This document shows positions 19,699 through 63,943 of a DNA stretch of 64,000 bases, piece by piece. The stretch comes from Staphylococcus phage vB_SauM-UFV_DC4. Within the stretch, counting starts at the first letter, position 1. The number at the start of each line of letters is the position of its first letter. Position numbers and translations under genes: made by a program. The notes under the pieces were generated by a model. The model did not search any database. It saw only the letters and a list, made by a program, of their open reading frames with translations, and was not told where the DNA came from. Location of the stretch: the sequence record MZ779063.1; one strand, 5' to 3'.

Positions 19699-21210
19699 AT
19701 GAAAATAGATATGATCAACGTTGATCAAATTATTACAGCCTATGAAGCTAAAGAAGTTACCAATCCTATTTTCTTTGATTCAGGAACTTTACCTAAAGAA
19801 GACGGTTTATTCTCATATGAAATATTTGGTTTAATAGGTACTGATGAAAGAAAGAATAATGTGGGTTGGATTAATTTAGGTGGTAAATACTTAAATCCTG
19901 TAGCTTATAAAGCTATGAAAGAATTAGATAAGAATATCGATTTATGTATTCAAGGATCTGATTACTTTAAAATTGAAAAAGGACAATTAGTTCCAGATGA
20001 AAATGGTGAAACTGGATTAAATTTCCTATACGATAATTATGAAAATCTTAAATTTAGAAAAAATGATTCTCGTATCCGAAATGAAAAAATTGATATGCTT
20101 AAAAACACTCCTAAAGATAGAATATTCACAGATAAATGGTTAGTTATTCCTGCTTTCTATCGTGACTTTAACCCTAATGAAACTTCAGGAGAAATTCAAG
20201 ATACTGAAGAAATAAATGATATGTATGCGAGTATTTTAAGATCTGTAGATTCAATTAGTTTTAACTCATTTGATTTTGTAGCTAATACGACTAAATATAA
20301 TATTCAAAATAAATTATTTGAAATATACGTTAAATTAACTTCAGGTGAACTATCAGGTAAAACTGGTATGATGCAAAGAAATATTTTAGGTAAGACAGTA
20401 GATAATAGTACTCGTTCAGTTATTTCATCACCTAAAATCAATTCAAATAAATGGAATGAAATGCAAATTGAATTCGGTCAATTAGGTGTTCCATTAACTC
20501 AATTAGTAACATTGTTCTTACCTTTCTTTAGTAAATATATTATAGACTTTATTGAAATTCATAAAGATGCTTTCCAAACTGCTACTGGAACTGATGAAAA
20601 GGAATTAACATTAGAAGAAGTATATGAACAATTTGATGATAAATCTATTAAGAATATGTTAGAATACTTTATTAAAGACCCTAATGAAAGATTTAGTCCT
20701 ATATATGTAAATGATAGACAAGGTAAACGTCATAAAGTTAAATTATTTGAAAATACTTTAGGTAGAACTTTTACTGTAATTGATTTACTTTATATAGCTG
20801 CTACAGAAATATGTGAAGATAAGTATGTAGTTTATTCAAGATATCCTATTGAAAATTTCTTGAATGTGGCTCCTGCTAAAATTAAAATACTAACTACAGT
20901 TGATACAATTCCAGAAATTACTTTAGATGATATTGTACTTAAAGATTATCCTAAAGTTGTTCATGAATATCCTGTTGATGAAGATGTATTTATAGATACT
21001 GCTATTATACACAACAGTTATGCCGGAGCACTTGGTGCAGATTTTGACGGTGATATGATCTCTATTAGATCTTTATGGACAGTTGAAGCTAATAAAGAAG
21101 CTAATAAACTTCTTAATAAGAAAACTAACTATCTAAACTACACTGGTAATTCAGTACGTAATTTGGGTAACGAATCGGTACAAGCTTTATATTCATTAAC
21201 TAAAGAATAA
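19699..21210 (+). CDS. RNA polymerase beta-prime subunit, N-terminal-half homolog
   Basis: EDGLFSYEIFG matches the beta-prime DGLFCxxIFGP region; GADFDGDM catalytic Mg motif (nt 21040-21054); no Zn-finger cysteines. Confidence 0.7.
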   Translation: MKIDMINVDQIITAYEAKEVTNPIFFDSGTLPKEDGLFSYEIFGLIGTDERKNNVGWINLGGKYLNPVAYKAMKELDKNIDLCIQGSDYFKIEKGQLVPDENGETGLNFLYDNYENLKFRKNDSRIRNEKIDMLKNTPKDRIFTDKWLVIPAFYRDFNPNETSGEIQDTEEINDMYASILRSVDSISFNSFDFVANTTKYNIQNKLFEIYVKLTSGELSGKTGMMQRNILGKTVDNSTRSVISSPKINSNKWNEMQIEFGQLGVPLTQLVTLFLPFFSKYIIDFIEIHKDAFQTATGTDEKELTLEEVYEQFDDKSIKNMLEYFIKDPNERFSPIYVNDRQGKRHKVKLFENTLGRTFTVIDLLYIAATEICEDKYVVYSRYPIENFLNVAPAKIKILTTVDTIPEITLDDIVLKDYPKVVHEYPVDEDVFIDTAIIHNSYAGALGADFDGDMISIRSLWTVEANKEANKLLNKKTNYLNYTGNSVRNLGNESVQALYSLTKE

Positions 21211-21223
21211 ATTTAAAAAAATG

Positions 21224-21262
21224 AGGTAACGGACAATTATAGTTCGTTACCTCTATTATATT
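21224..21262 (+). terminator. rho-independent terminator
   Basis: hairpin GAGGTAACGG...CGTTACCTC followed by a T-rich tract. Confidence 0.55.
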
Positions 21263-21287
21263 GCAAAAATGTATCTAATGATATTTT

Positions 21288-21330
21288 AAATATATATTAT
21301 AATTATGAAGTTGATAATTATTAATCAACT
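21288..21330 (+). promoter_or_regulatory. promoter-like box AAATATATATTATAA plus 5'-leader hairpin AGTTGAT...ATCAACT
   Basis: motif copy followed by an inverted repeat, then an RBS and ATG at 21356. Confidence 0.45.
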
Positions 21331-21355
21331 AATTTAAATAAAAGGATGATTTAAT

Positions 21356-21655
21356 ATGAATGAAATTAAAATAATGGATACTGAACTACTACAGGAAGCT
21401 GTAGAAGGAAAAGAGAATAACGGTGGAGGTTACGAACATACTCGTACCGTTTTCGAATTCCAAGGAAAACAAGGAGTTTTCGAAGACACTTCTTGTGGTG
21501 ATTTCGGTAGCAGATTCTTCATGGAATGGGATGGAAAAATGGCTATGTGGGGAAGTATGATTGATGAAGAACTCGAATACAGTGAATTCGATGAACAAGA
21601 ACAATCAGAACTTCTAAAGTATTTTAGAGTTCCTGTTTTTGAAGAAACAATCTAG
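21356..21655 (+). CDS. small acidic protein (99 aa); GC and codon usage atypical for this genome
   Basis: E/D-rich; C-ending codons (TTC, AAC, GGT) unlike its neighbours; own promoter box and own terminator. Confidence 0.5.
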   Translation: MNEIKIMDTELLQEAVEGKENNGGGYEHTRTVFEFQGKQGVFEDTSCGDFGSRFFMEWDGKMAMWGSMIDEELEYSEFDEQEQSELLKYFRVPVFEETI

Positions 21656-21715: not shown

Positions 21716-21736
21716 AAATATATATTATAAAAATAG
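21716..21736 (+). promoter_or_regulatory. promoter-like box AAATATATATTATAAAAATAG
   Basis: motif copy upstream of paralog array B. Confidence 0.45.
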
Positions 21737-21814: not shown

Positions 21815-22297
21815 ATGATATATTACAAAAATAAAGTAAATGGTGAAATATACGAAGTTAATGATATTCATAGAAAAGATGATGCTTTTTATTATGTGTT
21901 TGGTAATGAATTTAAAAAAGAAAGAATAGGATTATATGAATCAGTGGGTAAAAAAATTGATTTATTTGATAAAGATAAAGGACATAAAGAATTAAACTTC
22001 CAATTAAATTATGACTCATCTAGATTATTTTTAGTTACACATATGAAATATGATAATAATAATCCTTTTGCACCTAAAGCAGTAGATTTAAAGAATCAAA
22101 ATTTTGTCGCATCCGATTCTTCAGAAGATCTTTACTATATATTATATAAAAGAATGTGTAATGCAATAGATATACCTTTATTAAATTATAATGTATTATT
22201 AAAAGAATTTAATTTTGATAATGAAGATATATTTAAAATAATATCAGAAGATTGTAAAGAAGTAAAAGATTTTAAAATTAGAAATCTTTTTAAATAA
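21815..22297 (+). CDS. C-tail family protein (tail KEVKDFKIRNLFK); paralog of 23025-23516
   Basis: N-terminus MIYYKNKVNGEIYEVNDIHRKDDAFYYVF is shared with 23025-23516. Confidence 0.55.
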   Translation: MIYYKNKVNGEIYEVNDIHRKDDAFYYVFGNEFKKERIGLYESVGKKIDLFDKDKGHKELNFQLNYDSSRLFLVTHMKYDNNNPFAPKAVDLKNQNFVASDSSEDLYYILYKRMCNAIDIPLLNYNVLLKEFNFDNEDIFKIISEDCKEVKDFKIRNLFK

Positions 22298-22312
22298 AAG
22301 GAGAAATTTTAA

Positions 22313-23014
22313 ATGGAAAATATTAAATTGTATAAAAATCTAGAAAATGGTGATAAATTTACTTTATCTAAAGATGAAATTAATAATGGTAGATTTCTTT
22401 ATAAAGTCATGAAACAAATAAAAAGTAGTTTTTACCCATATTATAATTATGAAGACCAACCCATTACAACCAATGGAAACTCTTATTTAATTAATAAACA
22501 ACTGAATTTTCATTTTTATACACATTCTGATATTATTATAAATTTTAAAAATTTAATTGGAATAGATGAAGATATAATAATTAAGAGTAATGAAAATAAA
22601 GAAAGAAATATTTCATCTTCAATTGTTTGTTTCTCTGATTCCAATACAGATAATGATGGAATTTATGAAAATATATTTCAAATTGTTTTAAATACAAAAA
22701 AGACTAAGAAAATAATTCGTATGCTAGATAAATATAAAAGTGATAAATATAAAATATCTTCCTGTACAATGGATAAAAATGAAGTACATTTTAAAGTTAG
22801 TTTCAAACAAGATTATTTGTCTGATAAGAATAATGACGTTTATGATTCTCTAGATGAATTAATATATTATATATTAAAAGATCTTAGAATTAAGATCGAC
22901 AATTCGTATATGTATTTTATGGATTATCTAAGATGGAATTTGGAATTTATTGCTGAAGAAATTACTGATGAGGAAGAAATTAAAAATTACTTAATTAAAG
23001 AAAAATTTAAATAA
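22313..23014 (+). CDS. C-tail family protein (tail ITDEEEIKNYLIKEKFK)
   Basis: conserved tail. Confidence 0.55.
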   Translation: MENIKLYKNLENGDKFTLSKDEINNGRFLYKVMKQIKSSFYPYYNYEDQPITTNGNSYLINKQLNFHFYTHSDIIINFKNLIGIDEDIIIKSNENKERNISSSIVCFSDSNTDNDGIYENIFQIVLNTKKTKKIIRMLDKYKSDKYKISSCTMDKNEVHFKVSFKQDYLSDKNNDVYDSLDELIYYILKDLRIKIDNSYMYFMDYLRWNLEFIAEEITDEEEIKNYLIKEKFK

Positions 23015-23024
23015 GGAAGTGTAA

Positions 23025-23516
23025 ATGGATATGATATATTATAAAAATAAAGTAAATGGTGAAATATATGAAGTTAATAATATTCATAGAAAAGATGATG
23101 CATTTTATTATGTATTCAATAATGAATTTAAAAAAGAGAATTCGTCTTTTTATAAATCTTATGGTAAAAATATTGATTTATATGATGAAGACGTAGGAAG
23201 TATAAAATTGGAGTTTTTCTTAATTTATGATTCTATTAATCTTAATTTAACTACACACTTTTCTTGGGATTTTAATAATATTCCTTTTATACCTAAAATT
23301 ATAGAATTAACAAACCAAAATCTTGTCATATCAGACTCTTCAATTGATCTTTATTATTTATTCTATAAAAGAATATGTGATGTGATAGATATAAATATGG
23401 CATATTATAATATTCCATTAGAAAAATTTAATTTTGATAATGGAGATATATTTGAAATAATTTCAGAAGATTGTAAAGAAGTAAAAGATCTTAAAGTTAG
23501 AAATCATTTTAGATAA
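23025..23516 (+). CDS. C-tail family protein (tail KEVKDLKVRNHFR)
   Basis: paralog of 21815-22297. Confidence 0.55.
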   Translation: MDMIYYKNKVNGEIYEVNNIHRKDDAFYYVFNNEFKKENSSFYKSYGKNIDLYDEDVGSIKLEFFLIYDSINLNLTTHFSWDFNNIPFIPKIIELTNQNLVISDSSIDLYYLFYKRICDVIDINMAYYNIPLEKFNFDNGDIFEIISEDCKEVKDLKVRNHFR

Positions 23517-24373: not shown

Positions 24374-24423
24374 AAATATATATTATAAAAATGAGATAAT
24401 GAATTAATATAATTCATTATCTC
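24374..24423 (+). promoter_or_regulatory. promoter-like box AAATATATATTATAAAAATG plus 5'-leader hairpin GAGATAATGAATT...AATTCATTATCTC
   Basis: perfect 13-bp inverted repeat begins at the G that ends the box. Confidence 0.5.
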
Positions 24424-24455: not shown

Positions 24456-25064
24456 ATGGATTTAAAAGAGAATAAATTTTATTATAATAAAGATATTAAT
24501 GAGCTTTTTATAATTGGTAAGGATGAAAGTGATATTAACGATAAGATAAATAAATTCTATTATAAAAAATTATTAGAAAAAAATTTAGATTATCATGGTT
24601 TAATTAATAATCTTTATTATAATAGAAATATAAATTTTGATTTAATGGATGATGACGATATATATTTTAGTAATATGTATAATGGAATTAGAGAATATAT
24701 TAAGGTGAGTTATGTAGAATTTTCATGTACAAATTTTGAAGATAATGAAGTAATATTACAGTTAGATACTTTTATTGATAAAAGCAATGATAAAAATCTT
24801 TTAGAAGTTCATAAAGATTCGCATGGTGTTACCATAACAATGGTAAAAGGTTTTTATGAAAAAGATCTTATAAATTATAATGAATACAAAAATATTTTAG
24901 ACAAATTATCTGATCTGTTTGACACAATGCTTAAAGAAGAAAATGATGGAAATATTAAAATCTTTATAAATGATATTGATATATTTGAACCTTATGCATA
25001 TTTTAGAGAGTTAGAAGACGAAAGAGGAATTAAAAATATTTTGGTTAAGAAAAATTTTATATAA
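24456..25064 (+). CDS. C-tail family protein (tail ERGIKNILVKKNFI)
   Basis: conserved tail. Confidence 0.55.
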   Translation: MDLKENKFYYNKDINELFIIGKDESDINDKINKFYYKKLLEKNLDYHGLINNLYYNRNINFDLMDDDDIYFSNMYNGIREYIKVSYVEFSCTNFEDNEVILQLDTFIDKSNDKNLLEVHKDSHGVTITMVKGFYEKDLINYNEYKNILDKLSDLFDTMLKEENDGNIKIFINDIDIFEPYAYFRELEDERGIKNILVKKNFI

Positions 25065-25078
25065 AGGAGATAGATATA

Positions 25079-25705
25079 ATGGATGTAAATGAATATATAA
25101 ATAATCATGATTTTTATAGAGTTGGGAATGACGGTCAAGTATTTGTATTTAATAAAGATATATCAAAAGATGAATTAAATTCTAAAATATTTTCTAAATT
25201 ATTTGCATGCGAAAATATAGGAATTTTATTGTCTGAATATGGTTATTATGTAATAGATGAATATAATGTATTCTTAAGAAATAATGATAAAATATTATTA
25301 GTTGAAAATATGACTATTGATCTAAGTTTAATTAAAGATGATCTAATTGAATTAAATTTTGCATTAATTATTAAATCTAGTCTTCCTTCAAAAATTGGTC
25401 CTTTTGAAAAAGATAAAGGTAATCATGATGATTTTTATTATTATGATACTATTATTCAAATAGAAAATAAAGATAACTTTCAACATGAATTAATTTCCCA
25501 TATAACAAATCATTTTAATAAAATGAGTGATGTTGATTTAATGCTTTTAACTGCTAAAAATGAAATTAAATTTAATAAAGATTATAGTATTAATAAAAAA
25601 TGTATTGATTTTAAATGTAATTTTAATGAAATTTATAAAATACTTAATAAATTAGAAGATGAAAAAGAAATTAAGAAATATCTAACTAAAGAAAATTTTA
25701 AATAA
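25079..25705 (+). CDS. C-tail family protein (tail EDEKEIKKYLTKENFK)
   Basis: conserved tail. Confidence 0.55.
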   Translation: MDVNEYINNHDFYRVGNDGQVFVFNKDISKDELNSKIFSKLFACENIGILLSEYGYYVIDEYNVFLRNNDKILLVENMTIDLSLIKDDLIELNFALIIKSSLPSKIGPFEKDKGNHDDFYYYDTIIQIENKDNFQHELISHITNHFNKMSDVDLMLLTAKNEIKFNKDYSINKKCIDFKCNFNEIYKILNKLEDEKEIKKYLTKENFK

Positions 25706-25718
25706 GGATAGAATAAAT

Positions 25719-26282
25719 ATGAATTTAGATAATATTGTAATATTAAAAAAGAAAAATGATGGTAAATTTGACAATAACAAATTTATAGAATTTAATCATA
25801 ATAATATTGATAATGATGAAATATTAAGTCTTTCTTTAATTACTCTATATACAAGCGTATATGCATTTTATATAAAAAGTGATATAAAATATGACAATTT
25901 TGTTAGTTATTTAGCTAATTTTTATTTAGAAATAGATGGGTATTTAAAAGGACCTTTAAATATAACACATGATGAAAATAATAGAATGCTTATAATTTAT
26001 AAAGGAAGACTACCACAAGATATTTTCAAAGTTAGAGAATTTAACGTAAATACTAAATTATATGCGTATTTAATTAAAGATGATGAATACAATACGGTAG
26101 AAGATGATCTAATCGAATCAGTAATCAATGGATCAGAATATATAATGAATAGTGAAAGAATTAAGCCAAAAATTATTATTAATGGAGCATATAAGGATAT
26201 TACGAATGTATTAAATTATTTTGAAAAACTTACTGATGAAAAAGAAATTAAAAAATATCTAATTAAAAAAAATTTTAAGTAG
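25719..26282 (+). CDS. C-tail family protein (tail TDEKEIKKYLIKKNFK)
   Basis: conserved tail. Confidence 0.55.
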   Translation: MNLDNIVILKKKNDGKFDNNKFIEFNHNNIDNDEILSLSLITLYTSVYAFYIKSDIKYDNFVSYLANFYLEIDGYLKGPLNITHDENNRMLIIYKGRLPQDIFKVREFNVNTKLYAYLIKDDEYNTVEDDLIESVINGSEYIMNSERIKPKIIINGAYKDITNVLNYFEKLTDEKEIKKYLIKKNFK

Positions 26283-26299
26283 AATAAGGAGGATTAAAT

Positions 26300-26923
26300 T
26301 TGGATAAGTCATTATATGTATCGGATATATTCGATGAGAAAGTTATAGGAAGAAAGGATCTTAATAAAGATGAACTTTTTGATTTGTCATTTAATACAAT
26401 TTTAAATAATTCTGCTGACACTAGATTTAATAAAGAAGGAATTAGGTTAATGTTATCATTTTCAAAGGGATTAATTTTAAAATTTGATTATGCAGACAAA
26501 TATTTTTATGTGAAAGATTTTATATTTTTAATAGAAAAAGTTGATGGTAACTATGAATTTAATTTTACATTAAGTATTCCAGAATTTGCAGACAGTGAAA
26601 TTGAAATTGAATTAGGAATTTTTGAATCGGATAAAGGTCATAGAGAATTTTATTTTAATGATTTTTCTTATTATAAAGAAGGAAAAACTTTATTAGAAAG
26701 AGCTAAAGAATATTTAATATACGATATTTTTAATAATTATGGTGTTATTTTTAGTATTTTTTCATTAAAAGACAAAAATAGAATTTTAACAGACGATAAT
26801 TTTATCATAGATAATAATGATATAGATGAAATTTATAGTCTAAAAAATATAGATAACGTATTTAGAGAAGTAACAAACGAAAAAGAAATTAAAGAATACT
26901 TAGTTCAGAAAGGATTTAGATAA
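26300..26923 (+). CDS. C-tail family protein (tail TNEKEIKEYLVQKGFR)
   Basis: conserved tail. Confidence 0.55.
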   Translation: MDKSLYVSDIFDEKVIGRKDLNKDELFDLSFNTILNNSADTRFNKEGIRLMLSFSKGLILKFDYADKYFYVKDFIFLIEKVDGNYEFNFTLSIPEFADSEIEIELGIFESDKGHREFYFNDFSYYKEGKTLLERAKEYLIYDIFNNYGVIFSIFSLKDKNRILTDDNFIIDNNDIDEIYSLKNIDNVFREVTNEKEIKEYLVQKGFR

Positions 26924-26924
26924 A

Positions 26925-27536
26925 ATGAAAATAGACTTAGAATCTTATGAATACTATTACCATGATGAAGAAAAAATATTAGTTCCAGTATCATTAGATA
27001 TGAAGAAAGAAAATGCAAATGAGTTAATGACGTTTGAATATTATAAGAAAGTTTTTAAAAGTTTTAATCATAATATATTTCATAAAAGAATTCACGATGA
27101 TAATATACTATTTAGTACTCGATTAAATAAAGTGATTAACAAAAGTACTGGTATATCAATACCTGCTTATGATTTATATATACATTTTGAAATAGATAAC
27201 TCATTAAATATTATTTCCTTAGAATTAAGTTTTTCAATGGATACAAATCACTTTGATTTATTTAGAACATTCTATAAAGATAAAATAGAAGTTATAAATT
27301 TTTCAAAGACAGATTTTTTAAACTATAATCAAAATGTAGATAATTTAGAAGATAAAATGGCATGTCTATTAGCTAAATTATTCTTTGATATGCACAATGA
27401 TGAAAATGAAGATATTGAAATATATGTAGATAATTTTTACCATGAATCACTAGACATAGCTAAGCCATATAAATATTTTAGATTGATGGGAGAAAAAGAA
27501 ATAAAAAATCTAGCAACTAAAAAAACTTTTAAATAA
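26925..27536 (+). CDS. C-tail family protein (tail GEKEIKNLATKKTFK)
   Basis: conserved tail. Confidence 0.55.
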   Translation: MKIDLESYEYYYHDEEKILVPVSLDMKKENANELMTFEYYKKVFKSFNHNIFHKRIHDDNILFSTRLNKVINKSTGISIPAYDLYIHFEIDNSLNIISLELSFSMDTNHFDLFRTFYKDKIEVINFSKTDFLNYNQNVDNLEDKMACLLAKLFFDMHNDENEDIEIYVDNFYHESLDIAKPYKYFRLMGEKEIKNLATKKTFK

Positions 27537-27593: not shown

Positions 27594-28373
27594 ATGTCTG
27601 AAACTAATGAAATTGATTTAATATCACAAATCAATGATATGATGGATGAATATAAGATGTTAGTAAAATTTAAAGATAAAATGGAAAATAAAGAAATTCA
27701 ATTAGAAAATCGTATACAGGATTTAACTAAGAATTTGAAATATCCTAAACATACATTCGTATCTAATATGGAAGCTAACATTATTAGTGTAGAAAAAGAA
27801 ATTAAAGACACTATTATGCAAATGAAAAATGTTAAAAAAGATATTATTGACTTAACTATGAAAGCTCAGAAAATGGCTGAAGATGATGAATCTGAAGATA
27901 ATTATAAAACTCTTGCTAAAAATGTACTTAATGAGCTTAATAATATGTCTAATAAAGATATTTTAAACAGTATGATGGAACCTGAAGAAGTAAATGATGA
28001 AGATACTGATTTTAGTGAAGAATTAGATGCAAAATTATCGCAATTAGATGAAGAAGAGAAATCTATCAATAAAGAAGTAGATCAAAAAGAAGAATTGAGT
28101 CAAGAAATTAATGAGTTAGATCAACAAGATTTATCTTCTATATTAAAAGTCTATAAAGGTACATTACAATTCTTTGTTATAGGAGATTCTCCTGAAGAAT
28201 ATGAATTAGTAGTTGCCGATATGGATATGAATATTATTGAAGAAGATGAAATGGAAGATGAATATCCAGAATTATTTACTATGACTAGAGATCTTATCTT
28301 TGAAGATATTGAAGGTAATGATGAAATAGTTAAAGATGAATTTGGTAATATTTATCAAAAAGCAGAATTTTAA
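27594..28373 (+). CDS. acidic coiled-coil protein (259 aa)
   Basis: E/D-rich with heptad-like segments. Confidence 0.5.
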   Translation: MSETNEIDLISQINDMMDEYKMLVKFKDKMENKEIQLENRIQDLTKNLKYPKHTFVSNMEANIISVEKEIKDTIMQMKNVKKDIIDLTMKAQKMAEDDESEDNYKTLAKNVLNELNNMSNKDILNSMMEPEEVNDEDTDFSEELDAKLSQLDEEEKSINKEVDQKEELSQEINELDQQDLSSILKVYKGTLQFFVIGDSPEEYELVVADMDMNIIEEDEMEDEYPELFTMTRDLIFEDIEGNDEIVKDEFGNIYQKAEF

Positions 28374-28985: not shown

Positions 28986-29037
28986 AAATATATATTATAA
29001 AAATGTTATCCCAATACTATTAAATTAGTATTGGGAT
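28986..29037 (+). promoter_or_regulatory. promoter-like box AAATATATATTATAAAAATG plus conserved hairpin ATCCCAATACTATT...AGTATTGGGAT (copy 2)
   Basis: box followed 3 nt later by the CCCAATAC hairpin; upstream of array C. Confidence 0.5.
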
Positions 29038-29062: not shown

Positions 29063-29839
29063 ATGGAGAAAATTAACAAATACTACATTAGTAAATCGAA
29101 AGATGAATTTATAGAATTAACTTTCAATGAAAATGAAACACTCTATTTTGACTTTAAGTGGAAAGTTTTAAGTGAGCTATTCACTACAATGCAAATAAAT
29201 TATAATAAGAGATTTCTTATATCTCATGAAGAACATGATGACAATGGTTTAGTTGGTCTTAGAATAAATTTCAATGCTTTTCCCACAGTTAAATACAAAT
29301 ATAAAGGTAAGAAAAATAAAATGGAACTTCTTATATACGCTATAATACGCTTTAGTCTAAATGAAGAAGACGATAATTATATTAAGTTTAAAGCTGTTCC
29401 TTTATATAATAATAGTGAAATAGGGAAAAGATTATTTAGTAAAAGATCTGGTATATTTGATGATAATGGTGAACTAGATTTACCGCATGACTTTAATGAA
29501 GAAGTTATGATTCGCTTTTTAAAATATTTTAAAAGCCATATACAAAAAGGAAAAAGACCTTTAGAACTCAAGGACGATTTACACAAGATGTTTACTACTA
29601 CAAATAAATTAATTTTTGAATTACTAGATCAGATACAAGATCATTCAGATATTGAATTTCTTATTGCACCCGATTGGGATTTTAGTGGTAAAGAAATGGA
29701 AAAAGAAAAAGGTTTTAGTTTTGAAAAAGAATATGATAAGTATATCAGTTTAAATGATTTCGATGTTGATGCATATTTTAGAGAAATAACTGATGAGAAA
29801 GAGATTAAAAAATTTAAAGTTAAGAAAGGATTTTCCTAA
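29063..29839 (+). CDS. C-tail family protein (tail ITDEKEIKKFKVKKGFS); RDHxDIEF subfamily
   Basis: tail plus the shared internal motif LLDQIQDHSDIEFLIAPD. Confidence 0.55.
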   Translation: MEKINKYYISKSKDEFIELTFNENETLYFDFKWKVLSELFTTMQINYNKRFLISHEEHDDNGLVGLRINFNAFPTVKYKYKGKKNKMELLIYAIIRFSLNEEDDNYIKFKAVPLYNNSEIGKRLFSKRSGIFDDNGELDLPHDFNEEVMIRFLKYFKSHIQKGKRPLELKDDLHKMFTTTNKLIFELLDQIQDHSDIEFLIAPDWDFSGKEMEKEKGFSFEKEYDKYISLNDFDVDAYFREITDEKEIKKFKVKKGFS

Positions 29840-29840
29840 T

Positions 29841-30659
29841 ATGAAAAATAATACAAAATATTTTATAGATAAAAAAAGAGATGAATTAATTGAAATTGAT
29901 AAAGAATATCTTAATCGATATGAGTATATTGCACACGTATTAACTGTCATTGATATGAATAAGCTTTTATATATTGAAGATCATGCTAGATCCTTTATAA
30001 ATGGTATTAATATTGAAGAAAATGATGTGGGAAATGGATTGACTTTTAATAATATAGAAATTCATAATAATATCCATTTCAAAAATATAAATAGTAAAAA
30101 TAATGCGTATAAAAATTTTAATACCGATTTTTATATAAACTTCTTTATTGATAGAATGGATAAAGTTAAAACTCAGAATTTTAAGTTAAAATTTAATTTT
30201 TATAATTCAATATATAAAGAATATTTTAATAAAATTACCAATAATTTATTAAATGAAGATAATTTAGTCAATGAAGGAGTAAATAAAGAAATAAGATCTC
30301 TTATGAATTTTGAATTATTTAAAAAAGAGTTATATAATACTAAATACAATAATAGTGAATATTTAAATCTTTTTGAAAATTCATCATATATGAAGGACAA
30401 TGTTATTGGATTTATAAATAAATTTGAAGGATTATTTTCTAGTGTAATATACCAAAATAACCTTAGTGTATTAATGACTCTTTATGAAATAAAATACATG
30501 TATGAAGATGACATAGATTTTTATATTAATTTTTATAATGAAAATTATGGTTTAGTTAATATATTAGAATTAATCGAAAGTGATGAAAATGATTTATTTA
30601 AAGAAATTAAAACAGAAAAAGAAATGAAAGCGTTTAAAGTTAGAAAAGGATTCAAATAA
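29841..30659 (+). CDS. C-tail family protein (tail KTEKEMKAFKVRKGFK)
   Basis: ATG at 29841 sits right after the upstream stop, so it is preferred over the overlapping track start at 29793. Confidence 0.5.
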   Translation: MKNNTKYFIDKKRDELIEIDKEYLNRYEYIAHVLTVIDMNKLLYIEDHARSFINGINIEENDVGNGLTFNNIEIHNNIHFKNINSKNNAYKNFNTDFYINFFIDRMDKVKTQNFKLKFNFYNSIYKEYFNKITNNLLNEDNLVNEGVNKEIRSLMNFELFKKELYNTKYNNSEYLNLFENSSYMKDNVIGFINKFEGLFSSVIYQNNLSVLMTLYEIKYMYEDDIDFYINFYNENYGLVNILELIESDENDLFKEIKTEKEMKAFKVRKGFK

Positions 30660-30680
30660 TATAAAGAAAGGATTTTTGTA

Positions 30681-31421
30681 ATGGAATATAATAATTACTA
30701 TAGATATAAATTAGATGGAAAAATACTTCACTTTGATATGGATAGAACTGATTTACGTAGAGATAAATTGGCTGAAATATTTACTAAAGTTAAGATGGAA
30801 TATATTTATAAAGATAAAAAAATGATTAAAAAAGCAAGAAACTTTATTTACCGATCTAATCTTTCTTTAGAGTATTCTCATTTTAAAGATAAAGTATTTG
30901 TAATCAAACAAATTTCTAAAATGCTAAGTAAAAACAATGTAAGGGATTTATTAATTTACGATACGGATCTTAGTTTAGAATTTAATTCTATTTTAGACGG
31001 TGGTATATTTAAAAAAGATTTTCCAGAAGGATCCTTTTATGAAAAAATAGAAAGTAATATGAATAGAAAATATTTAATTTTAAGTGATAATATAAGACAC
31101 ACTAGTGAAAGTTTTGTTGATTTATATGATAAAGATTATATTTTAAATTTTGAAGAAGTAGAATTGCTAGTCAAAGAATTTAATAAAACTCTTTTAAATT
31201 ATCTTATGGATTTAATGAGTTATGGAAATCTAGAATTAAAAGTTAGAAAATCGGAGTTAGCATATTTTATGACAGGAATATATACAAAAATGGAAGAAAA
31301 CGAAGATAAGTTATTCCCTATATTTGATTATAAATTTTTACTTAATGAATCTGGATTATTTGAAGAGATTACAGATGAGAAAGTTATTAAAGAATATTTA
31401 GTGAAAAATAATTTTAAATAA
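30681..31421 (+). CDS. C-tail family protein (tail ITDEKVIKEYLVKNNFK)
   Basis: conserved tail. Confidence 0.55.
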   Translation: MEYNNYYRYKLDGKILHFDMDRTDLRRDKLAEIFTKVKMEYIYKDKKMIKKARNFIYRSNLSLEYSHFKDKVFVIKQISKMLSKNNVRDLLIYDTDLSLEFNSILDGGIFKKDFPEGSFYEKIESNMNRKYLILSDNIRHTSESFVDLYDKDYILNFEEVELLVKEFNKTLLNYLMDLMSYGNLELKVRKSELAYFMTGIYTKMEENEDKLFPIFDYKFLLNESGLFEEITDEKVIKEYLVKNNFK

Positions 31422-31437
31422 AAAGGAGATCAATGTA

Positions 31438-32220: not shown

Positions 32221-32235
32221 AAGGAGATCAATATA

Positions 32236-33030: not shown

Positions 33031-33043
33031 AGGAGTTAATATA

Positions 33044-42309: not shown

Positions 42310-42359
42310 GAATAACGGATTAAATACAATTCGTTATTCAAATTTATATTATATAAGTG
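42310..42359 (+). promoter_or_regulatory. terminator hairpin GAATAACGGATT...AATTCGTTATTC followed by the variant box AAATTTATATTATATAAGTG
   Basis: perfect inverted repeat, then a TATATTAT-containing box upstream of the beta-prime C-terminal gene. Confidence 0.45.
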
Positions 42360-48737: not shown

Positions 48738-48757
48738 AAATATATATTATAAAGATG
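48738..48757 (+). promoter_or_regulatory. promoter-like box AAATATATATTATAAAGATG
   Basis: motif copy about 45 nt upstream of the SSB-like gene. Confidence 0.45.
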
Positions 48758-53331: not shown

Positions 53332-53365
53332 GTTAAGGAAGGATCTTATAAAAATCCTTCTTAAC
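53332..53365 (-). terminator. hairpin terminator overlapping the CHAP lysin stop
   Basis: GTTAAGGAAGGATC...(GA)TCCTTCTTAAC inverted repeat. Confidence 0.45.
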
Positions 53366-54158
53366 TAAATGTTCCCCATGCGTTACCAATACGTTGTCCT
53401 TTACCATTTGATTTACCAATTGGCACGTATACATATTGTCCCTTAAATTTACCTGAAACCCAGATAAGACCATCAAAGTCTTGGATTTCTTCGTATTTAA
53501 TAGAGTCGCCTTTTTTCATGAATGGACCTGTAGGCCATCCAGTCCATGGACCATTTTTACGAGTAATAATTCCTGAAGCAACATTACATTTGAAAGTAGC
53601 TTTTTCAGTTTTCCATAGAATACCTGCTGAATTACGTTTCCATTTAGCAGATGTAACAGCTTTCTTAGGAGCTGCTTTCTTAACTACTTTTTTCTTAGGA
53701 GCTGCTTTCTTAGTAGTTGCTTTTTTAGTAGCTGTACTACTAAAGGCTGGACGAATTACTCCCCAAAATCCTGTATAATCATGGAATACTTTAGCTGCAG
53801 GTGAACCATTGCTACCTGCGTTAAACCAGTTTTGGTCAACTGAATAGAAATTGTTTAAGTTAGCTGAAGTAATAATACCTGTATGACCATAAACATCATA
53901 TGGAGGATTAGCCCAAATAGCTATATCTCCTGGTTGAGGTAAGAATGATGGAGTATTTTTAATAAGTTTCCATCCTGAAGGCATTGTATTATCTTTAAGA
54001 TCTTTAGCATTACCCCAAGGCCAGAATTTTCCATCAGTTAAATAGTGACAATAACCAATAGTCAAATCCATACATTGAGCACCATAAGCTCCATCCATGT
54101 CAAGTCTACGACCAATACGATTATTAACCCAATTCAAAGCTTGAGTTTTAGTTTTCAT
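53361..54158 (-). CDS. endolysin: CHAP peptidase plus SH3b (SH3_5) cell-wall-binding domain
   Basis: CHAP motifs GAYGAQCMDL and YGHTGII; K/T/A-rich linker; C-terminal SH3_5-like WKRNSAGILWKTEKATFKC...GKFKGQYVYVP. Confidence 0.8.
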   Translation of the reverse strand: MKTKTQALNWVNNRIGRRLDMDGAYGAQCMDLTIGYCHYLTDGKFWPWGNAKDLKDNTMPSGWKLIKNTPSFLPQPGDIAIWANPPYDVYGHTGIITSANLNNFYSVDQNWFNAGSNGSPAAKVFHDYTGFWGVIRPAFSSTATKKATTKKAAPKKKVVKKAAPKKAVTSAKWKRNSAGILWKTEKATFKCNVASGIITRKNGPWTGWPTGPFMKKGDSIKYEEIQDFDGLIWVSGKFKGQYVYVPIGKSNGKGQRIGNAWGTFS

Positions 54159-54323: not shown

Positions 54324-55274
54324 TTAGCTAAATGTTCCCCATGCTGGACCAATACGTTTACCGTTACCATTTGATTTACCCACTGGTACGTATACATATT
54401 GTCCCTTAAATTTACCTGAAACCCAAATATATCCGTTAAAATCTTGGATTTCATCATATTTAATAGTGTCACCTTTAGACATACGAGGACCTTGAGGCCA
54501 TCCAGTCCATGGACCATTTTTACGAGTAATAATTCCTACAGATACACCACATTTGAAAGTAGCTTTTTCAGTTTTCCATAGAATACCTGCTGAATTACGT
54601 TTCCAAGTAGTTGAAGTTTCAGTACTTGTTTTCTTAGGTTTAGCAGGTGCTTTAGTTGTAGTAGTAGATTTAGTCGCTGTTGAAGTTTTAGCTGTAGAAG
54701 TAGCACCATTTTTCATATAAGCTAGAACCTTTTTATCTACATTAGAAACACTACGAGACATACCGCATGCAGCTAATAAGTTACCTGGATCTTGTTTGTC
54801 TGCTTGAATATCTTGATGACCTGGCATATTTGTACTTGCATTAACTTTATATTCTTTACATAAGAAAGCAAGAATACGACAATAGTTATCAAATGATTTT
54901 AATGAACGACTTCTATTAGAGAAGTAACATCCTTCAACACCAATAGCACCGTCATTAGCATCAATACCATACCAAGCATTATCAGTTGGTGTATTATACA
55001 TAACATGCCATGCTTTTTCATCTAAAGGAACACAAATAATACATTCTTTATCATCAACAAAAATATGAGCTGATGCTGTATAGTTCCAATCGATATTATA
55101 TGAATTACGATAGTAATCAACATTATTTTGAGCTGTTGTGTTAGGGTTTCCTGTGTCATGAGCAACAATAAATTTAGGTCCGTTAAGCTTATCTCCAGCT
55201 CTACGAGTACCTATTGGTAAAAAATCAGTATAAACAGGAACACCGTTCCATGTACCGATATGTTTTTTAGCCAT
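54324..55274 (-). CDS. endolysin: N-acetylmuramoyl-L-alanine amidase (Amidase_2/PGRP) plus SH3b (SH3_5)
   Basis: Amidase_2-like N-terminus (KFIVAHDTGNPNTTAQNNVDYY...); T/S/K linker; C-terminal SH3_5 module about 80% identical to that of the CHAP lysin. Confidence 0.8.
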   Translation of the reverse strand: MAKKHIGTWNGVPVYTDFLPIGTRRAGDKLNGPKFIVAHDTGNPNTTAQNNVDYYRNSYNIDWNYTASAHIFVDDKECIICVPLDEKAWHVMYNTPTDNAWYGIDANDGAIGVEGCYFSNRSRSLKSFDNYCRILAFLCKEYKVNASTNMPGHQDIQADKQDPGNLLAACGMSRSVSNVDKKVLAYMKNGATSTAKTSTATKSTTTTKAPAKPKKTSTETSTTWKRNSAGILWKTEKATFKCGVSVGIITRKNGPWTGWPQGPRMSKGDTIKYDEIQDFNGYIWVSGKFKGQYVYVPVGKSNGNGKRIGPAWGTFS

Positions 55275-57870: not shown

Positions 57871-59796
57871 TTAACCATTAATAATTTTAAAAATATTTTC
57901 GTTTAATAAATCTCTTTCTAATCTACTTTCTTCAGAAAGTTTTTCCATTAATTCTTCTTCTGTATATTTATCAAAAGATACAGAATTATATCCATTAATA
58001 GAAATAGAAGATTCATTAACTTGAATTGATTTATTTACATTTAGATCATTAATGCTTTCTTCTAAGAATTTTTTAAGGCGTGTTTCATCTTTATTAGGTA
58101 CATTTTCATAAGCTTCAAACACTATATCTTCATAGTATTCTTCTAATGATTCTTCAAAACCTTCATAAAGTGAATCATCTTTATTTTTTAATTGGAAATT
58201 AATATTTTCTTCTAGTAATTCTAAATTAACTTCTTCAGATAATCTTTCTTTAACATCTTCGTTAACTTCATCTAAAGGATTAAGATAGTTTTCTAATAAA
58301 CCTGATTCTGATTCATTATTAACACGTTGAATTGTATTCATATTGAATTCTTTTTCTAAGTTTTCTAAAGTTATTTCATTATCTGTATAAAATTCTTTAA
58401 GAACTTTATTTACTTTAGGTTCAACTACAATAACTTTCTTAAATCCTAAACCGAAATCAACTTTATCAACTAATAATGAAGAAGGATTATATACTTTAGG
58501 AACTTCATCCATATAAGATTCTTTACTAATAACGATATCAACACGTTTACCTAAAGATTCAGATAAAGCATTTGTATATCTAATTAAGTCTTTAATTGTG
58601 TAAGTTTCATTAACTTCTTCTTCATTAATAACTTTAGTTTTAAATTCAATATCAGTAGATCCACAATTTTCACATACTAATTCTTCTTCATTAACGTTAG
58701 GATCAACTGTTTCTTGAACTCCACATTCGTTACAAATTACTTCTCCAACTTCTTTAGAAGTTTTTAAAGCTTCTTCAAGTTCTCCATTACAATTTTCACA
58801 TACTAATTCATTTGATTCATTCATTGTTAGATTGCTTCCACAATTTTCACAAACAGCTTTTCCATTTTCAATTTTACCAGTTTCACTTAAAATACGTCTA
58901 ACAGTTTCAATTGATTCATTAGTAACAAAAATTTGTTTTTCATTTTCGTTCTCTAATTTAAATGTATTTAATAGAGTTTCATGAATTTTCTCTGCATGAT
59001 TTTTAAATGATTTAACTACAGCAAAATCAGAATCTTCTCTCATATATACGTATGGGAAAGCTTGATTATTTTTATCATCAACATAATTTTCATTAGCAAT
59101 TATATTTTGTTTTTCAGTATTAACTTCTTTAGATTCTGGAGTACCTATAGCATATCCTACTTCAGCAGGAGTGTCTAATATTCCATTTTTTAAATCTACA
59201 AAAGTAAATTCAGGAACTGGATCTTTATCGTATAAATAAGTTTCAGTAACTGCTCCTCCAACACTTGGAGAACCATTTGCAGCAGACAAACCTCCATCAC
59301 TAACAGAACTTGCATTGGTATTTGCATTAGAAGTACTTACTGAATAAGTCGCATGTGGACCAAAAGTAGTAGGAACCATCATTTGAGAATCTAAGAATTT
59401 AGCTCTTAATTCAGAATATCCTGGTTGTTTCTTATCTTCATCATCGTCTTCTTTTTCATCTTCGAATAAATAATCTTCTTCAACAGAAATTTCAGGATCT
59501 GAATTAGCTACATCAGTAATGATAACTTCATCTTTATCAGCCACGATTGGTTGATCGTAATCAGGATGATCCGAATCAATTACTTGAACATCATCTTCAT
59601 CTTCAGCATCTTCAATTTCATCAAGATCATCAGATTCCTCATCATCAATTTCTTCTTCATCTTCATTAATTATTTCGTTAAACATTTCTTCTAATTCTTC
59701 ATCATCTTCAGGAATGTCACGTTTTAATTCTTCATTTTCATCATCATTTAAATCATCTTCAAATAATAACATATCATTTTTATTTTCTTCAGACAT
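57871..59796 (-). CDS. acidic protein with paired zinc-ribbon motifs
   Basis: strongly acidic N-terminus; CENCGSN...VCENCNG and CNECG...VCENCGS CxxC...CxxC pairs. Confidence 0.5.
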   Translation of the reverse strand: MSEENKNDMLLFEDDLNDDENEELKRDIPEDDEELEEMFNEIINEDEEEIDDEESDDLDEIEDAEDEDDVQVIDSDHPDYDQPIVADKDEVIITDVANSDPEISVEEDYLFEDEKEDDDEDKKQPGYSELRAKFLDSQMMVPTTFGPHATYSVSTSNANTNASSVSDGGLSAANGSPSVGGAVTETYLYDKDPVPEFTFVDLKNGILDTPAEVGYAIGTPESKEVNTEKQNIIANENYVDDKNNQAFPYVYMREDSDFAVVKSFKNHAEKIHETLLNTFKLENENEKQIFVTNESIETVRRILSETGKIENGKAVCENCGSNLTMNESNELVCENCNGELEEALKTSKEVGEVICNECGVQETVDPNVNEEELVCENCGSTDIEFKTKVINEEEVNETYTIKDLIRYTNALSESLGKRVDIVISKESYMDEVPKVYNPSSLLVDKVDFGLGFKKVIVVEPKVNKVLKEFYTDNEITLENLEKEFNMNTIQRVNNESESGLLENYLNPLDEVNEDVKERLSEEVNLELLEENINFQLKNKDDSLYEGFEESLEEYYEDIVFEAYENVPNKDETRLKKFLEESINDLNVNKSIQVNESSISINGYNSVSFDKYTEEELMEKLSEESRLERDLLNENIFKIING

Positions 59797-61220: not shown

Positions 61221-61730
61221 TTAAAGACCAAATTCTTTATCTAAAGATTCTTCTAAAGAACTAATATCTTCATTAGTTTGTTCTTCTTCTTTAACAGCTT
61301 CAAATAAGCTAAATAAAGCTTCTTCAACAGGACTTACAACTGAATCAATTTTATTTTCCATAGCTTCATTTAATTTAGTAGGTAATTTTTTGAATAGAGC
61401 GATGTATTTCTTTTCATTATTTCTAGCCCAGGCTTCTGCTTTTTTAGGACTTTGGAAAGCACATACTCGAATAAAACGATTTAAAATAGATGTTTTACCT
61501 TTAGCATCAATTACTCTGTAAGTAAATATAACTGTTCCATCTTCATGAGCATCTAAAGCAAATTCATTTTCATCAAATTTTTTACCTTTAGCGATAACTT
61601 TAGCTTTCTTTTTAGTAGCACGTGCTATGAATTTTTCCTCTGTATCTTTATCAGAAGGGTTTACCATTTTTCTTAATGTATCCTTCACATTAGCTTCATT
61701 TAATAATGTTTCTTGTAAAAAATCTTCCAT
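61221..61730 (-). CDS. hypothetical protein, paralog of 61772-62332 (C-terminal ...LEESLDKEFGL)
   Basis: shares AEAWARNNEKKYIALFKKLP / KEAQKWVQSNGNKFVSIFKKAP and the LEESLDKEFGL motif. Confidence 0.5.
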   Translation of the reverse strand: MEDFLQETLLNEANVKDTLRKMVNPSDKDTEEKFIARATKKKAKVIAKGKKFDENEFALDAHEDGTVIFTYRVIDAKGKTSILNRFIRVCAFQSPKKAEAWARNNEKKYIALFKKLPTKLNEAMENKIDSVVSPVEEALFSLFEAVKEEEQTNEDISSLEESLDKEFGL

Positions 61731-61771
61731 AATTATAATTCCTACTTTCGTAATTTATTTTTCTATATAAT

Positions 61772-62332
61772 TTAGTTTAATTTAAATTCCTCATCTAATA
61801 TTTTTTCTAAATTTTCAATAACTTTATCATCTTCATCAATTTCAGGTTTCTTATCAGGAGCTTTCTTGAAGATAGATACAAATTTATTTCCATTACTTTG
61901 AACCCATTTTTGTGCTTCTTTGAAACGATCTGCAACTATTCCAATAGGTATTCTTCGAATTTTATCTTTACCTTTATATTTAACAGGTACTTCTAAAGCA
62001 GCGTTTTTACCACCAGTACGTTTGGCCACTACTACAATATTGCTTGAATCAATTCTAATACCATTACTTTTAGCTTTTATTTTAAAATTCATACAAGCTT
62101 TAGCAAAATCCGCTTCAAGCGTATCAGGTTCAACAATTCCTTCTTGAACTGCAATATCCGAAGTATTACCGCAATCTTCACATACTAATTGACCTGATTC
62201 ATTTGGAGACATTTTAGAACCACATTCTTCACAAATAGGCTCTTCTTTATCAGTATCAATATCACGATTTAATTCTTCATTAACTAAACCAAATTCTTTA
62301 TCTAAAGATTCTTCTAAAGATTTAAAATCCAT
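61772..62332 (-). CDS. zinc-ribbon protein, paralog of 61221-61730 and related to 57871-59796
   Basis: N-terminal MDFKSLEESLDKEFGL; CEECGSKMSPNESGQLVCEDCG zinc ribbon. Confidence 0.5.
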   Translation of the reverse strand: MDFKSLEESLDKEFGLVNEELNRDIDTDKEEPICEECGSKMSPNESGQLVCEDCGNTSDIAVQEGIVEPDTLEADFAKACMNFKIKAKSNGIRIDSSNIVVVAKRTGGKNAALEVPVKYKGKDKIRRIPIGIVADRFKEAQKWVQSNGNKFVSIFKKAPDKKPEIDEDDKVIENLEKILDEEFKLN

Positions 62333-62428
62333 TATATTTTCCTCATTTCTATTTATATTTATTAATATTAATGTGTTATCTTAAATAAATTGCCCTAATG
62401 ACAATTTTTATCATTAGGACAATTAAAA

Positions 62429-63943
62429 TTATAGCATATCTTTTACTTTACGTTTTAATTCTATTAAAGCTTTATTAGTTGCCAACATTAAATAAATATC
62501 AGTAGTCATACGAGATACGATACTTAATGGAGAGAATATAGCTTCGATTTCTTCGTCAGGTCTATATTCTGCATAAGGAGATTCATTAGGAGGAGTAACA
62601 TCAGCAATAACTGTTTTACATGCTCCATAGAAACTAATCTTATCACCGATACTCATATCATCTTCATATTCTGTGAAAATTTCAATAAGTACTCCATCCA
62701 CTTTTTCACCTTTAATTTTCTCACTATTAATTTTCTCTACAGCTGGAATATCTACATCTAAACCAGGTAATGTAGATTTATTATCTTTAACTGCATTTTT
62801 GTATTCTCTATATTTACTCTTAGATTTATTAATATAACCATTAACTAATTTAGCTAATGTAGGAGACATATTTTCAATATCATCATTATAATAGATATTT
62901 ACTTTTTTAATTTCTCCAGTATATTTAGATCTAACAGCTCTATTAGAAATATCTTGTATTTCTTGTTCAAATTCAGAACCGATTTTATCTAATAAAGAAC
63001 CAATACCTTCATCATCAAATGAATTCTCAAATATCATTAATGGATCTCCTGTACGTACATTTTGACCTTCCTTAACAATATATTGAATATTTGTATTAGA
63101 AGCTAAATTAACTGTTTTCTTCATAGTAACTTTAGTTGACATTGCTTCAGACATACTGTTAGAAATAATAGAACTATCTTCGTACGTGCCATAGCTTGAA
63201 GCAACTGCAACTTTAGATAATTTACCAGCAGCAAATTGAATATCATTATTACTGCCAGATCCTGCAAAGTAACTATCATTTTTAGCCAATACTTGTCCTT
63301 TATTAAATTTCTTACCTACTTCAAATTGTGGGGTAAGTTTATTATTTTGATAGAAACCGCCATTAGAGTTTTTAGCAAGTTTTTCAGATATATCAATTAC
63401 ATCTTTATCCCCATTAATGTATTCAACAAGCATTAATCCTGTTTTCTCATTGATAGAAGTTACTTTCCCATCTTCTTTAGCTTTAAATGCAAAAGTATCT
63501 GAAATTTGATACGCTAAAGATTTATCTACACCAGATCCAACTAATGGACGATCATTTGTTTTAGTAGCGATTAAATGCTTAGCCTGAGTTCCTGTCATTC
63601 CTATACGAGGTGAATCTGCATGTCTACTAGTATATGGGTTTAATAATTCTAATGGAGTGTATAAAGCTGTATCACTTACATCTTTCTTACTACCATCAGT
63701 ATATCCACGAGTAGATTTAATCTGTGTATCATATGAAAGTTGTCTAACTATACCTACCTTATTACTGTCAGGTGTGCTTATTCCTAATATACCTTGCATA
63801 CTTTCGTCATAAGAACGAATATCAGGTTCATATGATTGTTCAGAGTTACGTCCAGCAGGACCTTTAAACGTAACAGAAGTCATCTTATCTATTTCTAAGT
63901 TAGGGTTTAAATCAGATACTTCATCTACTGTAGGTTGTTCCAT
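62429..63943 (-). CDS. RNA polymerase beta-subunit homolog, middle fragment
   Basis: GISTPDSNKVGIVRQLS vs the beta CPIETPEGPNIGLINSLS; RPLVGSGVDKSLAYQISD vs KPLVGTGMERAVAVDSG; lacks the GRHGNKG / GGQRFGEME C-terminal motifs, so beta is split here too. Confidence 0.6.
   Translation of the reverse strand: MEQPTVDEVSDLNPNLEIDKMTSVTFKGPAGRNSEQSYEPDIRSYDESMQGILGISTPDSNKVGIVRQLSYDTQIKSTRGYTDGSKKDVSDTALYTPLELLNPYTSRHADSPRIGMTGTQAKHLIATKTNDRPLVGSGVDKSLAYQISDTFAFKAKEDGKVTSINEKTGLMLVEYINGDKDVIDISEKLAKNSNGGFYQNNKLTPQFEVGKKFNKGQVLAKNDSYFAGSGSNNDIQFAAGKLSKVAVASSYGTYEDSSIISNSMSEAMSTKVTMKKTVNLASNTNIQYIVKEGQNVRTGDPLMIFENSFDDEGIGSLLDKIGSEFEQEIQDISNRAVRSKYTGEIKKVNIYYNDDIENMSPTLAKLVNGYINKSKSKYREYKNAVKDNKSTLPGLDVDIPAVEKINSEKIKGEKVDGVLIEIFTEYEDDMSIGDKISFYGACKTVIADVTPPNESPYAEYRPDEEIEAIFSPLSIVSRMTTDIYLMLATNKALIELKRKVKDML

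Follow-up and report, generated by a model that had tools for sequence, protein, structure and literature searches.

Subunit genes of two split RNA polymerases predicted in a 64-kb stretch of a Staphylococcus jumbo phage genome

Three RNA polymerase genes and their phage relatives

Jumbo phages of the AR9/phiKZ type carry split, sigma-less multisubunit RNA polymerases (RNAPs), two per phage, which have been studied since about 2015; a catalogue of those in Staphylococcus jumbo phages followed in 2020-2021. Here we describe three genes for pieces of such enzymes in a 64,000-nucleotide stretch of Staphylococcus phage vB_SauM-UFV_DC4 (MZ779063.1), hereafter the window, at 19699-21210 and 42399-44312 on the plus strand and at 62429-64000 on the minus strand. 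The window has a G+C content of ~24% and is densely packed with open reading frames (ORFs), which lie on the plus strand to ~51 kb and on the minus strand beyond. A first-pass annotation had pointed to RNAP motifs in three ORFs, the last of them listed as 62429-63943, and the ORFs are present at these coordinates, with the motifs readable in their translations. By profile searches, which it had named as the decisive test, the three ORFs belong, far beyond chance, to the RpoB/RpoC families. ORF 19699-21210 (plus strand) matches Pfam RNA_pol_Rpb1_2 (26.5 bits against a gathering score of 25.3, the type of cutoff used throughout) and phrog_2986 (E = 2.6e-110); ORF 42399-44312 (plus strand) matches RNA_pol_Rpb1_5 (38.9 bits against 28.5) and phrog_3015 (E = 9.9e-68); and ORF 62429-63943 (minus strand) matches RNA_pol_Rpb2_6 (34.5 bits against 23.4) and phrog_14872 (E = 1.4e-141). 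All three PHROGs carry the annotation "RNA polymerase beta subunit." Together with relatives in AR9 and PBS1, these matches bear out the proposal of a phage-encoded split multisubunit RNAP of the PBS1/AR9 type. The window very probably contains two pieces of a virion enzyme (vRNAP) and one piece of a nonvirion enzyme (nvRNAP). The window has 52 ORFs of 150 aa or more; when 40 of them were scanned against PHROGs, no RNAP family turned up besides these three pieces, and the syntenic annotation of phage Madawaska has the same three RNAP genes only. All three ORFs are continuous in the window, and a scan of the window at Rfam gathering scores gave no match, so that it holds no recognized group I intron.

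A megablast search with positions 40000-64000 against phage records matched only Staphylococcus jumbo phages, which places the source phage in a clade whose members have been sequenced and published before. The matches were to PALS_2 (96.0% DNA identity over 98% of the query), S6 (96.0% over 93%), Madawaska (95.0%), MarsHill (92.9%), and vB_StaM_SA1 (83.2%), in all of which the gene order matches that of the window. By its sequence, then, the window comes from the genome of a Staphylococcus jumbo phage that resembles S6, PALS_2, and MarsHill and is related to Bacillus phages AR9 and PBS1. The three RNAP proteins are 95 to 100% identical in PALS_2, S6, Madawaska, MarsHill, and LY01, with the exception of the Madawaska N-terminal β (N-β) fragment (87%), and are somewhat more diverged in SA1 (86 to 96%, with 86% for the C-terminal β' piece); the sole difference from these Staphylococcus jumbo relatives is in mobile-element content. 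Among phages of other genera, the nearest relatives include Bacillus phages AR9, PBS1, and BpSp and Listeria phage LPJP1, and conservation of the three proteins extends as far as phiKZ-like phages, across roughly 300 phage records. The MarsHill-like clade has been called AR9-like and credited with five virion and five nonvirion RNAP genes (Korn et al., bioRxiv 10.1101/2020.12.14.422802). The three split-RNAP pieces of the window are thus already known, since both RNAPs of the clade had been catalogued before.

A predicted virion RNAP β'-N gene at 19699-21210

The gene at 19699-21210 (plus strand) is intron-free and encodes a protein of 503 aa that runs from the N-terminal DGLF..IFG region (DGLFSYEIFG) through GKTGMMQRNILGKTVDNSTRSVI to GADFDGD, with GKxGxxRxNxLGKxVDxSxRSVI at aa 220-242. 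GADFDGD (aa 446-452, nucleotides [nt] 21034-21054) is the catalytic motif of the double-psi β-barrel (DPBB), for which the bacterial equivalent is the Mg-binding NADFDGD (DxDGD). The protein ends 51 aa beyond this motif and aligns with residues 412-514 of Escherichia coli β'. In tblastn searches it was 100% identical to its homologues in PALS_2 and S6 and 98% identical to that of Madawaska, gp113, which is annotated as "viral RNA polymerase beta-prime subunit, N-terminal." It matched AR9 g145 ("virion RNAP subunit; beta'-subunit, N-terminus") at 44% identity and E = 9e-101 over the first exon of g145, and Goe21 at 45% identity over its full length (100% coverage), whereas the match to the AR9 nvRNAP β'-N, gp270 (7S00_d), was weak and partial (E = 1e-11). 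These two values place the gene in the virion set, and we identify it as the predicted orthologue of the AR9 virion subunit gp145, that is, as vRNAP β'-N. By analogy to AR9, its product would be packaged in the virion and injected with the DNA.

The N-terminal zinc finger of β' (CxC...CxxC; C70/C72/C85/C88 in E. coli) is absent from the 503-aa protein because its only cysteines are Cys83 and Cys372, and the earlier remark that β'-N has no Zn-finger cysteines was correct. Its VGWINL segment comes directly after the DGLFSYEIFG segment, and in alignment AR9 gp270 (7S00_d) has an equally short, cysteine-free linker between IFG and GWINL. Loss of the finger is therefore common to the AR9 nvRNAP and no peculiarity of this gene. 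Discussion of the missing β' finger was sought in the structure papers on AR9 and phiKZ, neither of which uses the word "zinc."

Terminator-like hairpins lie on either side of the gene on the plus strand. One, at 19618-19646, closes the upstream gene, and in Madawaska a terminator is annotated at the corresponding position, ahead of gp113; the other, at 21223-21253, begins 13 nt past the stop codon of the vRNAP β'-N gene. The scan that found them returned five hairpins between 19000 and 22000, against 0.6 expected. The two predicted hairpins bracket the gene as a putative transcription unit of its own. Sigma-70-type promoter matches near the gene were not enriched (23 against 22.9 expected), and host-type promoters are therefore uninformative around it; nor did a search of the window with the AR9 early promoter consensus, described below, place a site at this gene. 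One match to the AR9 late motif AACA-N6-TW, AACATGGCTTTT (~19638-19649), lies upstream, but the motif is too short to be told from chance at 24% G+C and the match was disregarded.

The β'-N gene is uninterrupted here, as it is in PALS_2, S6, and SA1, but it is interrupted in Madawaska and MarsHill. The Madawaska gene is split near residue 451, where a homing endonuclease, gp114, is present, and tblastn matches to β'-N stop near residue 387 in MarsHill, AR9, and PBS1.

A predicted virion RNAP N-β gene at 62429-64000

On the minus strand, 62429-64000 holds the last 523 codons of a gene that runs past the window end. The frame is open from base 64000 and reaches 63943 without a stop codon; the 19 residues preceding the ATG at 63943 are conserved in S6, and identity to S6 is 99.4% across all 523 aa. 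The S6 gene (S6_1000) is one uninterrupted coding sequence (CDS) of 4,254 nt and 1,417 aa, and the PHROG alignment covers positions 895-1391 of the 1,393-position profile (phrog_14872). For these reasons, we regard the start at 63943 as a window-edge artifact and the piece as, by prediction, the last third of a vRNAP N-β of ~1,417 aa. The earlier description of each piece as a separate gene does not extend to this third one, which is cut by the window end with its frame open to 64000.

The piece carries STPDSNKVG (ETPEG-like), SPRIGMTGTQAKH, PLVGSG, a flap-like hybrid motif, and the β DPBB segment GDKISFYGACKT (nt 62612-62647), followed by SPLSIVSRM. HMMER aligned its GDKISFYGACKTVIADV...SPLSIVSRM with GDKVAGRHGNKGIISKI...NPLGVPSRM of chloroplast β, pairing GDKISFYGACKT with chloroplast GDKVAGRHGNKG. 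Both DPBB lysines are kept at bacterial spacing (GDK-x7-K), while other residues take the place of the GRHGNKG Arg, His, and Asn. About 25 aa follow SRM before the polypeptide ends, and the piece contains neither the GGQRFGEME region nor the clamp/anchor, the Pfam Rpb2_6 match ending at position 279 of 373. The first-pass annotation had let the β piece end before both GRHGNKG and GGQRFGEME; the first of these has its equivalent here in GDKISFYGACKT, with both lysines, and only the end before GGQRFGEME stands. By analogy, the missing C-terminal region of β would reside on a separate C-β polypeptide encoded outside the window.

The piece is 51% identical to AR9 g189, annotated as "beta subunit, N-terminus; virion RNAP subunit," and had no PDB match to nvRNAP β chains (7S00 and 7OGP, with the AR9 chains at E ≤ 0.01). 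The suggestion that the minus-strand β might belong to a virion-packaged set is upheld by this orthology. Its neighbors on the minus strand are genes for a virion structural protein, a tail fiber, and two endolysin-like amidases.

The N-β gene is uninterrupted in the part within the window; the PALS_2 copy is interrupted at a point equivalent to ~63596 of the window, inside the conserved SPRIGMTGTQAKH. In the GenBank records, the gene appears as three "hypothetical protein" CDSs in PALS_2 (PALS2_246, 247, and 248; record L001, 28457-34010), as one "hypothetical protein" in S6, and as "viral RNA polymerase beta subunit, C-terminal" in Madawaska (L002, 36777-40926); in AR9 it occupies 344-6962 of L005.

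A predicted nonvirion RNAP β'-C gene at 42399-44312

The third gene, at 42399-44312 (plus strand), encodes 637 aa with a bridge-helix-like SGYLNRKITLL (aa 266-276), CQTCYG (aa 352-357), and a trigger-loop-like LTEPMTQKLLSTKH (aa 377-390). Cysteines C288, C344, C352, and C355 have the pattern of the second β' Zn site, which is predicted here. Residues 45-632 align with residues 60-630 of the 631-residue AR9 gp154 (PDB 7S00 chain D) at E = 4.6e-82 and about 33% identity, and the core from bridge helix to trigger loop aligns with phiKZ gp74 (7OGP_D) at E = 1.8e-16. Identity is 97.8% to the Madawaska homologue, gp141, which carries the annotation "non-viral RNA polymerase beta-prime subunit, C-terminal." Given the full-length match to 7S00_D, we assign the gene as the predicted orthologue of AR9 gp154, nvRNAP β'-C. 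The encoded protein differs from AR9 gp154 (chain D of 7S00, 7S01, 7UM0, and 7UM1) and phiKZ gp74 (chain D of 7OGP) in host genus and sequence; on present evidence nothing functional separates them. The PALS_2 gene is labeled "delta subunit" in GenBank.

Putative early promoter sites

The early promoter consensus of AR9, which is used by its vRNAP, is AAATATATATTAT-N6-G (PMC5312081); the same consensus has been given for MarsHill, and the TATATTAT early promoter has already been reported for MarsHill-like phages (bioRxiv 10.1101/2020.12.14.422802). When both strands of the window were searched for this consensus with at most one mismatch, nine sites were found against 1.03 expected, and none of 100 shuffled sequences reached nine. 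The significance depended on the full consensus with N6-G, as the 10-mer TATATATTAT by itself showed no more than weak enrichment (9 sites, 4.8 being expected, with 9 reached in 7 of 100 shuffles). Eight of the nine sites are intergenic on the plus strand, with the TATATTAT core beginning 54 to 94 nt upstream of an ORF start. Six are exact (6015-6034, 11788-11807, 21288-21307, 24374-24393, 28986-29005, and 48738-48757) and one has a single mismatch (21716-21735); in these seven, the core begins 59 to 94 nt from the ORF start. The eighth, AAATTTATATTAT-ATAAGT-G at 42340-42359 (plus strand; one mismatch), is an early-promoter-like site, and 39 nt separate its end from the start codon (ATG) of the nvRNAP β'-C gene. 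The ninth copy, also with one mismatch, lies at 62881-62900 on the minus strand, inside the N-β coding sequence and on its sense strand; it probably arose by chance, although transcription might also start there, inside the gene. The eight plus-strand sites are presumed, from their match to the consensus, to be targets of the vRNAP. They mark putative early operons, made up mostly of small ORFs of unknown function.

Proposed roles of the two split enzymes in the infection cycle

Taken jointly, the assignments make it highly likely that parts of two split RNAPs are encoded here, with 19699-21210 as vRNAP β'-N, 62429-64000 as vRNAP N-β, and 42399-44312 as nvRNAP β'-C. Within these enzymes, β'-N would supply the catalytic DFDGD loop; N-β, the β DPBB with its two lysines; and β'-C, the bridge helix, trigger loop, and second Zn site. 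In AR9, the vRNAP genes gp078, gp125, gp145, gp189, and gp264 are late, and the nvRNAP genes are expressed early or continuously (PMC5312081). Rifampicin reduces the AR9 yield by acting on the host (PMC5312081), so that sensitivity to the drug is not by itself a clean sign of dependence on the host RNAP. The vRNAP is described as five polypeptides and the nvRNAP as four plus a specificity subunit (PMC7598289). The AR9 nvRNAP has been purified and its structure solved (PDB 7S00), but there was no purified vRNAP when the 2017 and 2020 papers (PMC5312081, PMC7598289) appeared, and its composition is therefore inferred even in AR9.

By analogy to AR9 and phiKZ, we propose that the vRNAP is made late, packaged in the virion, and injected along with the DNA, which would probably contain uracil. 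The injected vRNAP could then initiate at the AAATATATATTAT-N6-G early promoters, one of which may drive the nvRNAP β'-C gene. The position of 42340-42359 directly upstream of this gene fits the prediction of the AR9/phiKZ cascade that the injected vRNAP transcribes nvRNAP genes. The nvRNAP β'-C would join four other subunits (β'-N, N-β, C-β, and a gp226-like subunit), encoded outside the window, and the resulting enzyme would transcribe the late genes, among them those for the vRNAP subunits and the virion and lysis genes adjoining N-β. The hairpin bracketing of the β'-N gene, where no early site was found, and the position of N-β among virion and lysis genes would fit late expression. The sequence shows membership in the RNAP families, orthology to AR9 subunits, retention of catalytic residues, enrichment and positioning of the promoter motif, and truncation of the N-β gene at the window end; packaging, expression timing, and promoter use are what we infer for the RNAP genes of the window from their AR9 counterparts.

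Several points weigh against this assignment and its cascade. The virion and nonvirion labels have been carried over from AR9 by orthology at 33 to 51% identity. The site upstream of the β'-C gene departs from the consensus at one position, and the copy within N-β indicates that single sites can arise by chance. No late promoter signal was identified for the β'-N and N-β genes. Finally, the GenBank labels conflict, the Madawaska counterpart of the minus-strand gene being called the C-terminal part of β and the AR9 gene the N-terminus. In bacterial coordinates the AR9 label fits, since the piece aligns with residues 667-819 of E. coli β and residues 822-882 of the 1,119 of Thermus thermophilus β and with nothing further.

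The pieces can be grouped or read in other ways. The first-pass annotation had implicitly paired 19699-21210 with 42399-44312, and an arrangement can be imagined in which these two are partners in one host-independent RNAP, with only the minus-strand β in the virion set. Both lie on the plus strand and together they would make a complete β', split after the DPBB like the cyanobacterial γ/β' (PMC7598289). Yet the E value of 9e-101 ties β'-N to the AR9 virion g145, leaving gp270 as a distant nvRNAP paralogue at 1e-11; β'-C is the predicted orthologue of nvRNAP gp154; Madawaska annotates its β'-N homologue as viral; and the nvRNAP β'-N gene sits at the start of the published genome maps of the clade, outside this region (bioRxiv 10.1101/2020.12.14.422802). 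We consider the partnership of these two pieces very unlikely. It is slightly harder still to credit that the minus-strand piece is an independent 504-aa gene, which would make β more fragmented than in AR9. The ORF listing does give 62429-63943 with an ATG start, and PALS_2 annotates the gene as three CDSs (PALS2_246, 247, and 248). However, the frame runs on from 63943 to the end of the window without a stop, no Shine-Dalgarno-like sequence lies ahead of that ATG, and the 19 upstream residues are conserved in the single 1,417-aa ORF of S6; PHROG profiles of about 1,400 positions align in C-terminal register, and the interruption in PALS_2 falls at ~63596 of the window and not at 63943.

The pieces might also be decaying pseudogene remnants of an acquired bacterial RNAP, the enzymes being inactive. 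Their motifs are much diverged (GRHGNKG to SFYGACKT, NADFDGD to GADFDGD), the Zn finger is lost, and the Pfam scores barely exceed their thresholds. Against such decay, the ORFs are long and intact (503, 637, and at least 523 codons), all three catalytic aspartates survive, as do both DPBB lysines, and the proteins are 95 to 100% identical in PALS_2, S6, Madawaska, MarsHill, and LY01 (86 to 96% in SA1), with conservation reaching the phiKZ-like phages in those roughly 300 records. Moreover, the equally diverged nvRNAPs of AR9 and phiKZ are active, and their structures have been solved (7S00 and 7OGP). Of the explanations considered here, inactive remnants strike us as the most improbable, and two functional split RNAPs remain our preferred reading.

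Read as parts of two such enzymes, the genes resemble known systems closely. Relative to the vRNAP of AR9/PBS1, the β'-N and N-β pieces are orthologous at 44% and 51% identity, β' is split at the same place after the DPBB, and the early promoter consensus AAATATATATTAT-N6-G is identical; however, the AR9 vRNAP genes carry several group I introns (g145 is joined from three pieces and g189 from six), and the copies here carry none. The β' of cyanobacteria and chloroplasts, split into γ/RpoC1 and β'/RpoC2, is divided at the same position just after the DPBB: β'-N aligns to the end of cyanobacterial γ (8syi_D) and β'-C to the start of cyanobacterial β' (8syi_Z and 8gzg_Z). This coincidence of phage and cyanobacterial split sites has been remarked on in a review, and the cellular enzymes differ in retaining the Zn finger and the α, ω, and σ subunits, which the phage enzymes lack (PMC7598289).

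Intron variability of the RNAP genes has likewise been reported (Korn et al., bioRxiv 10.1101/2020.12.14.422802). These assignments carry little weight as discovery, the proteins being 95 to 100% identical to ones already deposited, and their practical value lies in annotation. In GenBank, the three RNAP genes are "hypothetical protein" in S6, as are two of the three in PALS_2. The intron-free alleles of the window mark, in empty form, the homing sites that introns occupy in Madawaska, MarsHill, PALS_2, and AR9.

Neighboring and other genes of the window

Directly downstream of N-β, at 61772-62332 (minus strand), lies a gene for a 186-aa zinc-ribbon protein, and a second zinc-ribbon gene (641 aa) follows at 57871-59796 (minus strand). 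The two clade-specific proteins have a CxxC...CxxC ribbon in common (56% identity over 23 aa) and show subthreshold Pfam similarity to the zinc ribbons of the transcription factors TFIIB and A2L (E = 0.0014 and 0.02). This weak similarity, together with the adjacency, is the basis on which both could be read as virion-delivered accessory or promoter-specificity factors of the vRNAP, a role that we find very doubtful. Conservation of 61772-62332 next to the vRNAP β gene was looked for in phages of other genera, but its homologues are confined to Staphylococcus jumbo phages. The counterparts of the 186-aa gene in S6 and Madawaska encode 342 aa, suggesting that a deletion between repeats took place. 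A neighboring 169-aa protein (61221-61730, minus strand) ends with SLEESLDKEFGL, and the next protein starts with MDFKSLEESLDKEFGL.

The family B DNA polymerase of the phage is likewise divided between two plus-strand genes 19 kb apart, both of them uninterrupted: the catalytic part at 16296-18230 (Pfam divDNApol, E = 4.9e-53) and the exonuclease/N-terminal part at 37289-39010 (phrog_3011, E = 4.2e-63). In Madawaska, by contrast, each homologue is assembled from two exons, and a gene for an HNH homing endonuclease is present in PALS_2 around the second of the two. In the window, a C-terminal HNH endonuclease domain occurs in a 645-aa protein encoded at 7711-9648 (plus strand), whose residues 346-640 match phrog_1314 (E = 2.6e-34).

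Tandem arrays of paralogous ORFs of 160 to 290 aa occupy 21815-22297/23025-23516, 24456-27536, and 29063-33880 on the plus strand, and several of them come after early promoter sites. The pair at 21815 and 23025 is 66% identical, and 29063-33880 contains five paralogues linked by blastp at E = 1e-5 to 1e-24. The ORFs scanned against PHROGs, those at 21815-23516 and 27594-28373, had no match. ARAGORN called a 94-nt tRNA-Phe(aaa) at 52143-52236 (minus strand), which is most likely a false positive, as it falls inside a 556-aa structural ORF with an Ig domain.

Two adjacent endolysin/amidase genes lie at 53361-54158 and 54324-55274 on the minus strand. Their catalytic N-terminal domains differ, whereas the C-terminal 93 aa are 85% identical, and this shared segment is presumably a cell-wall-binding domain.

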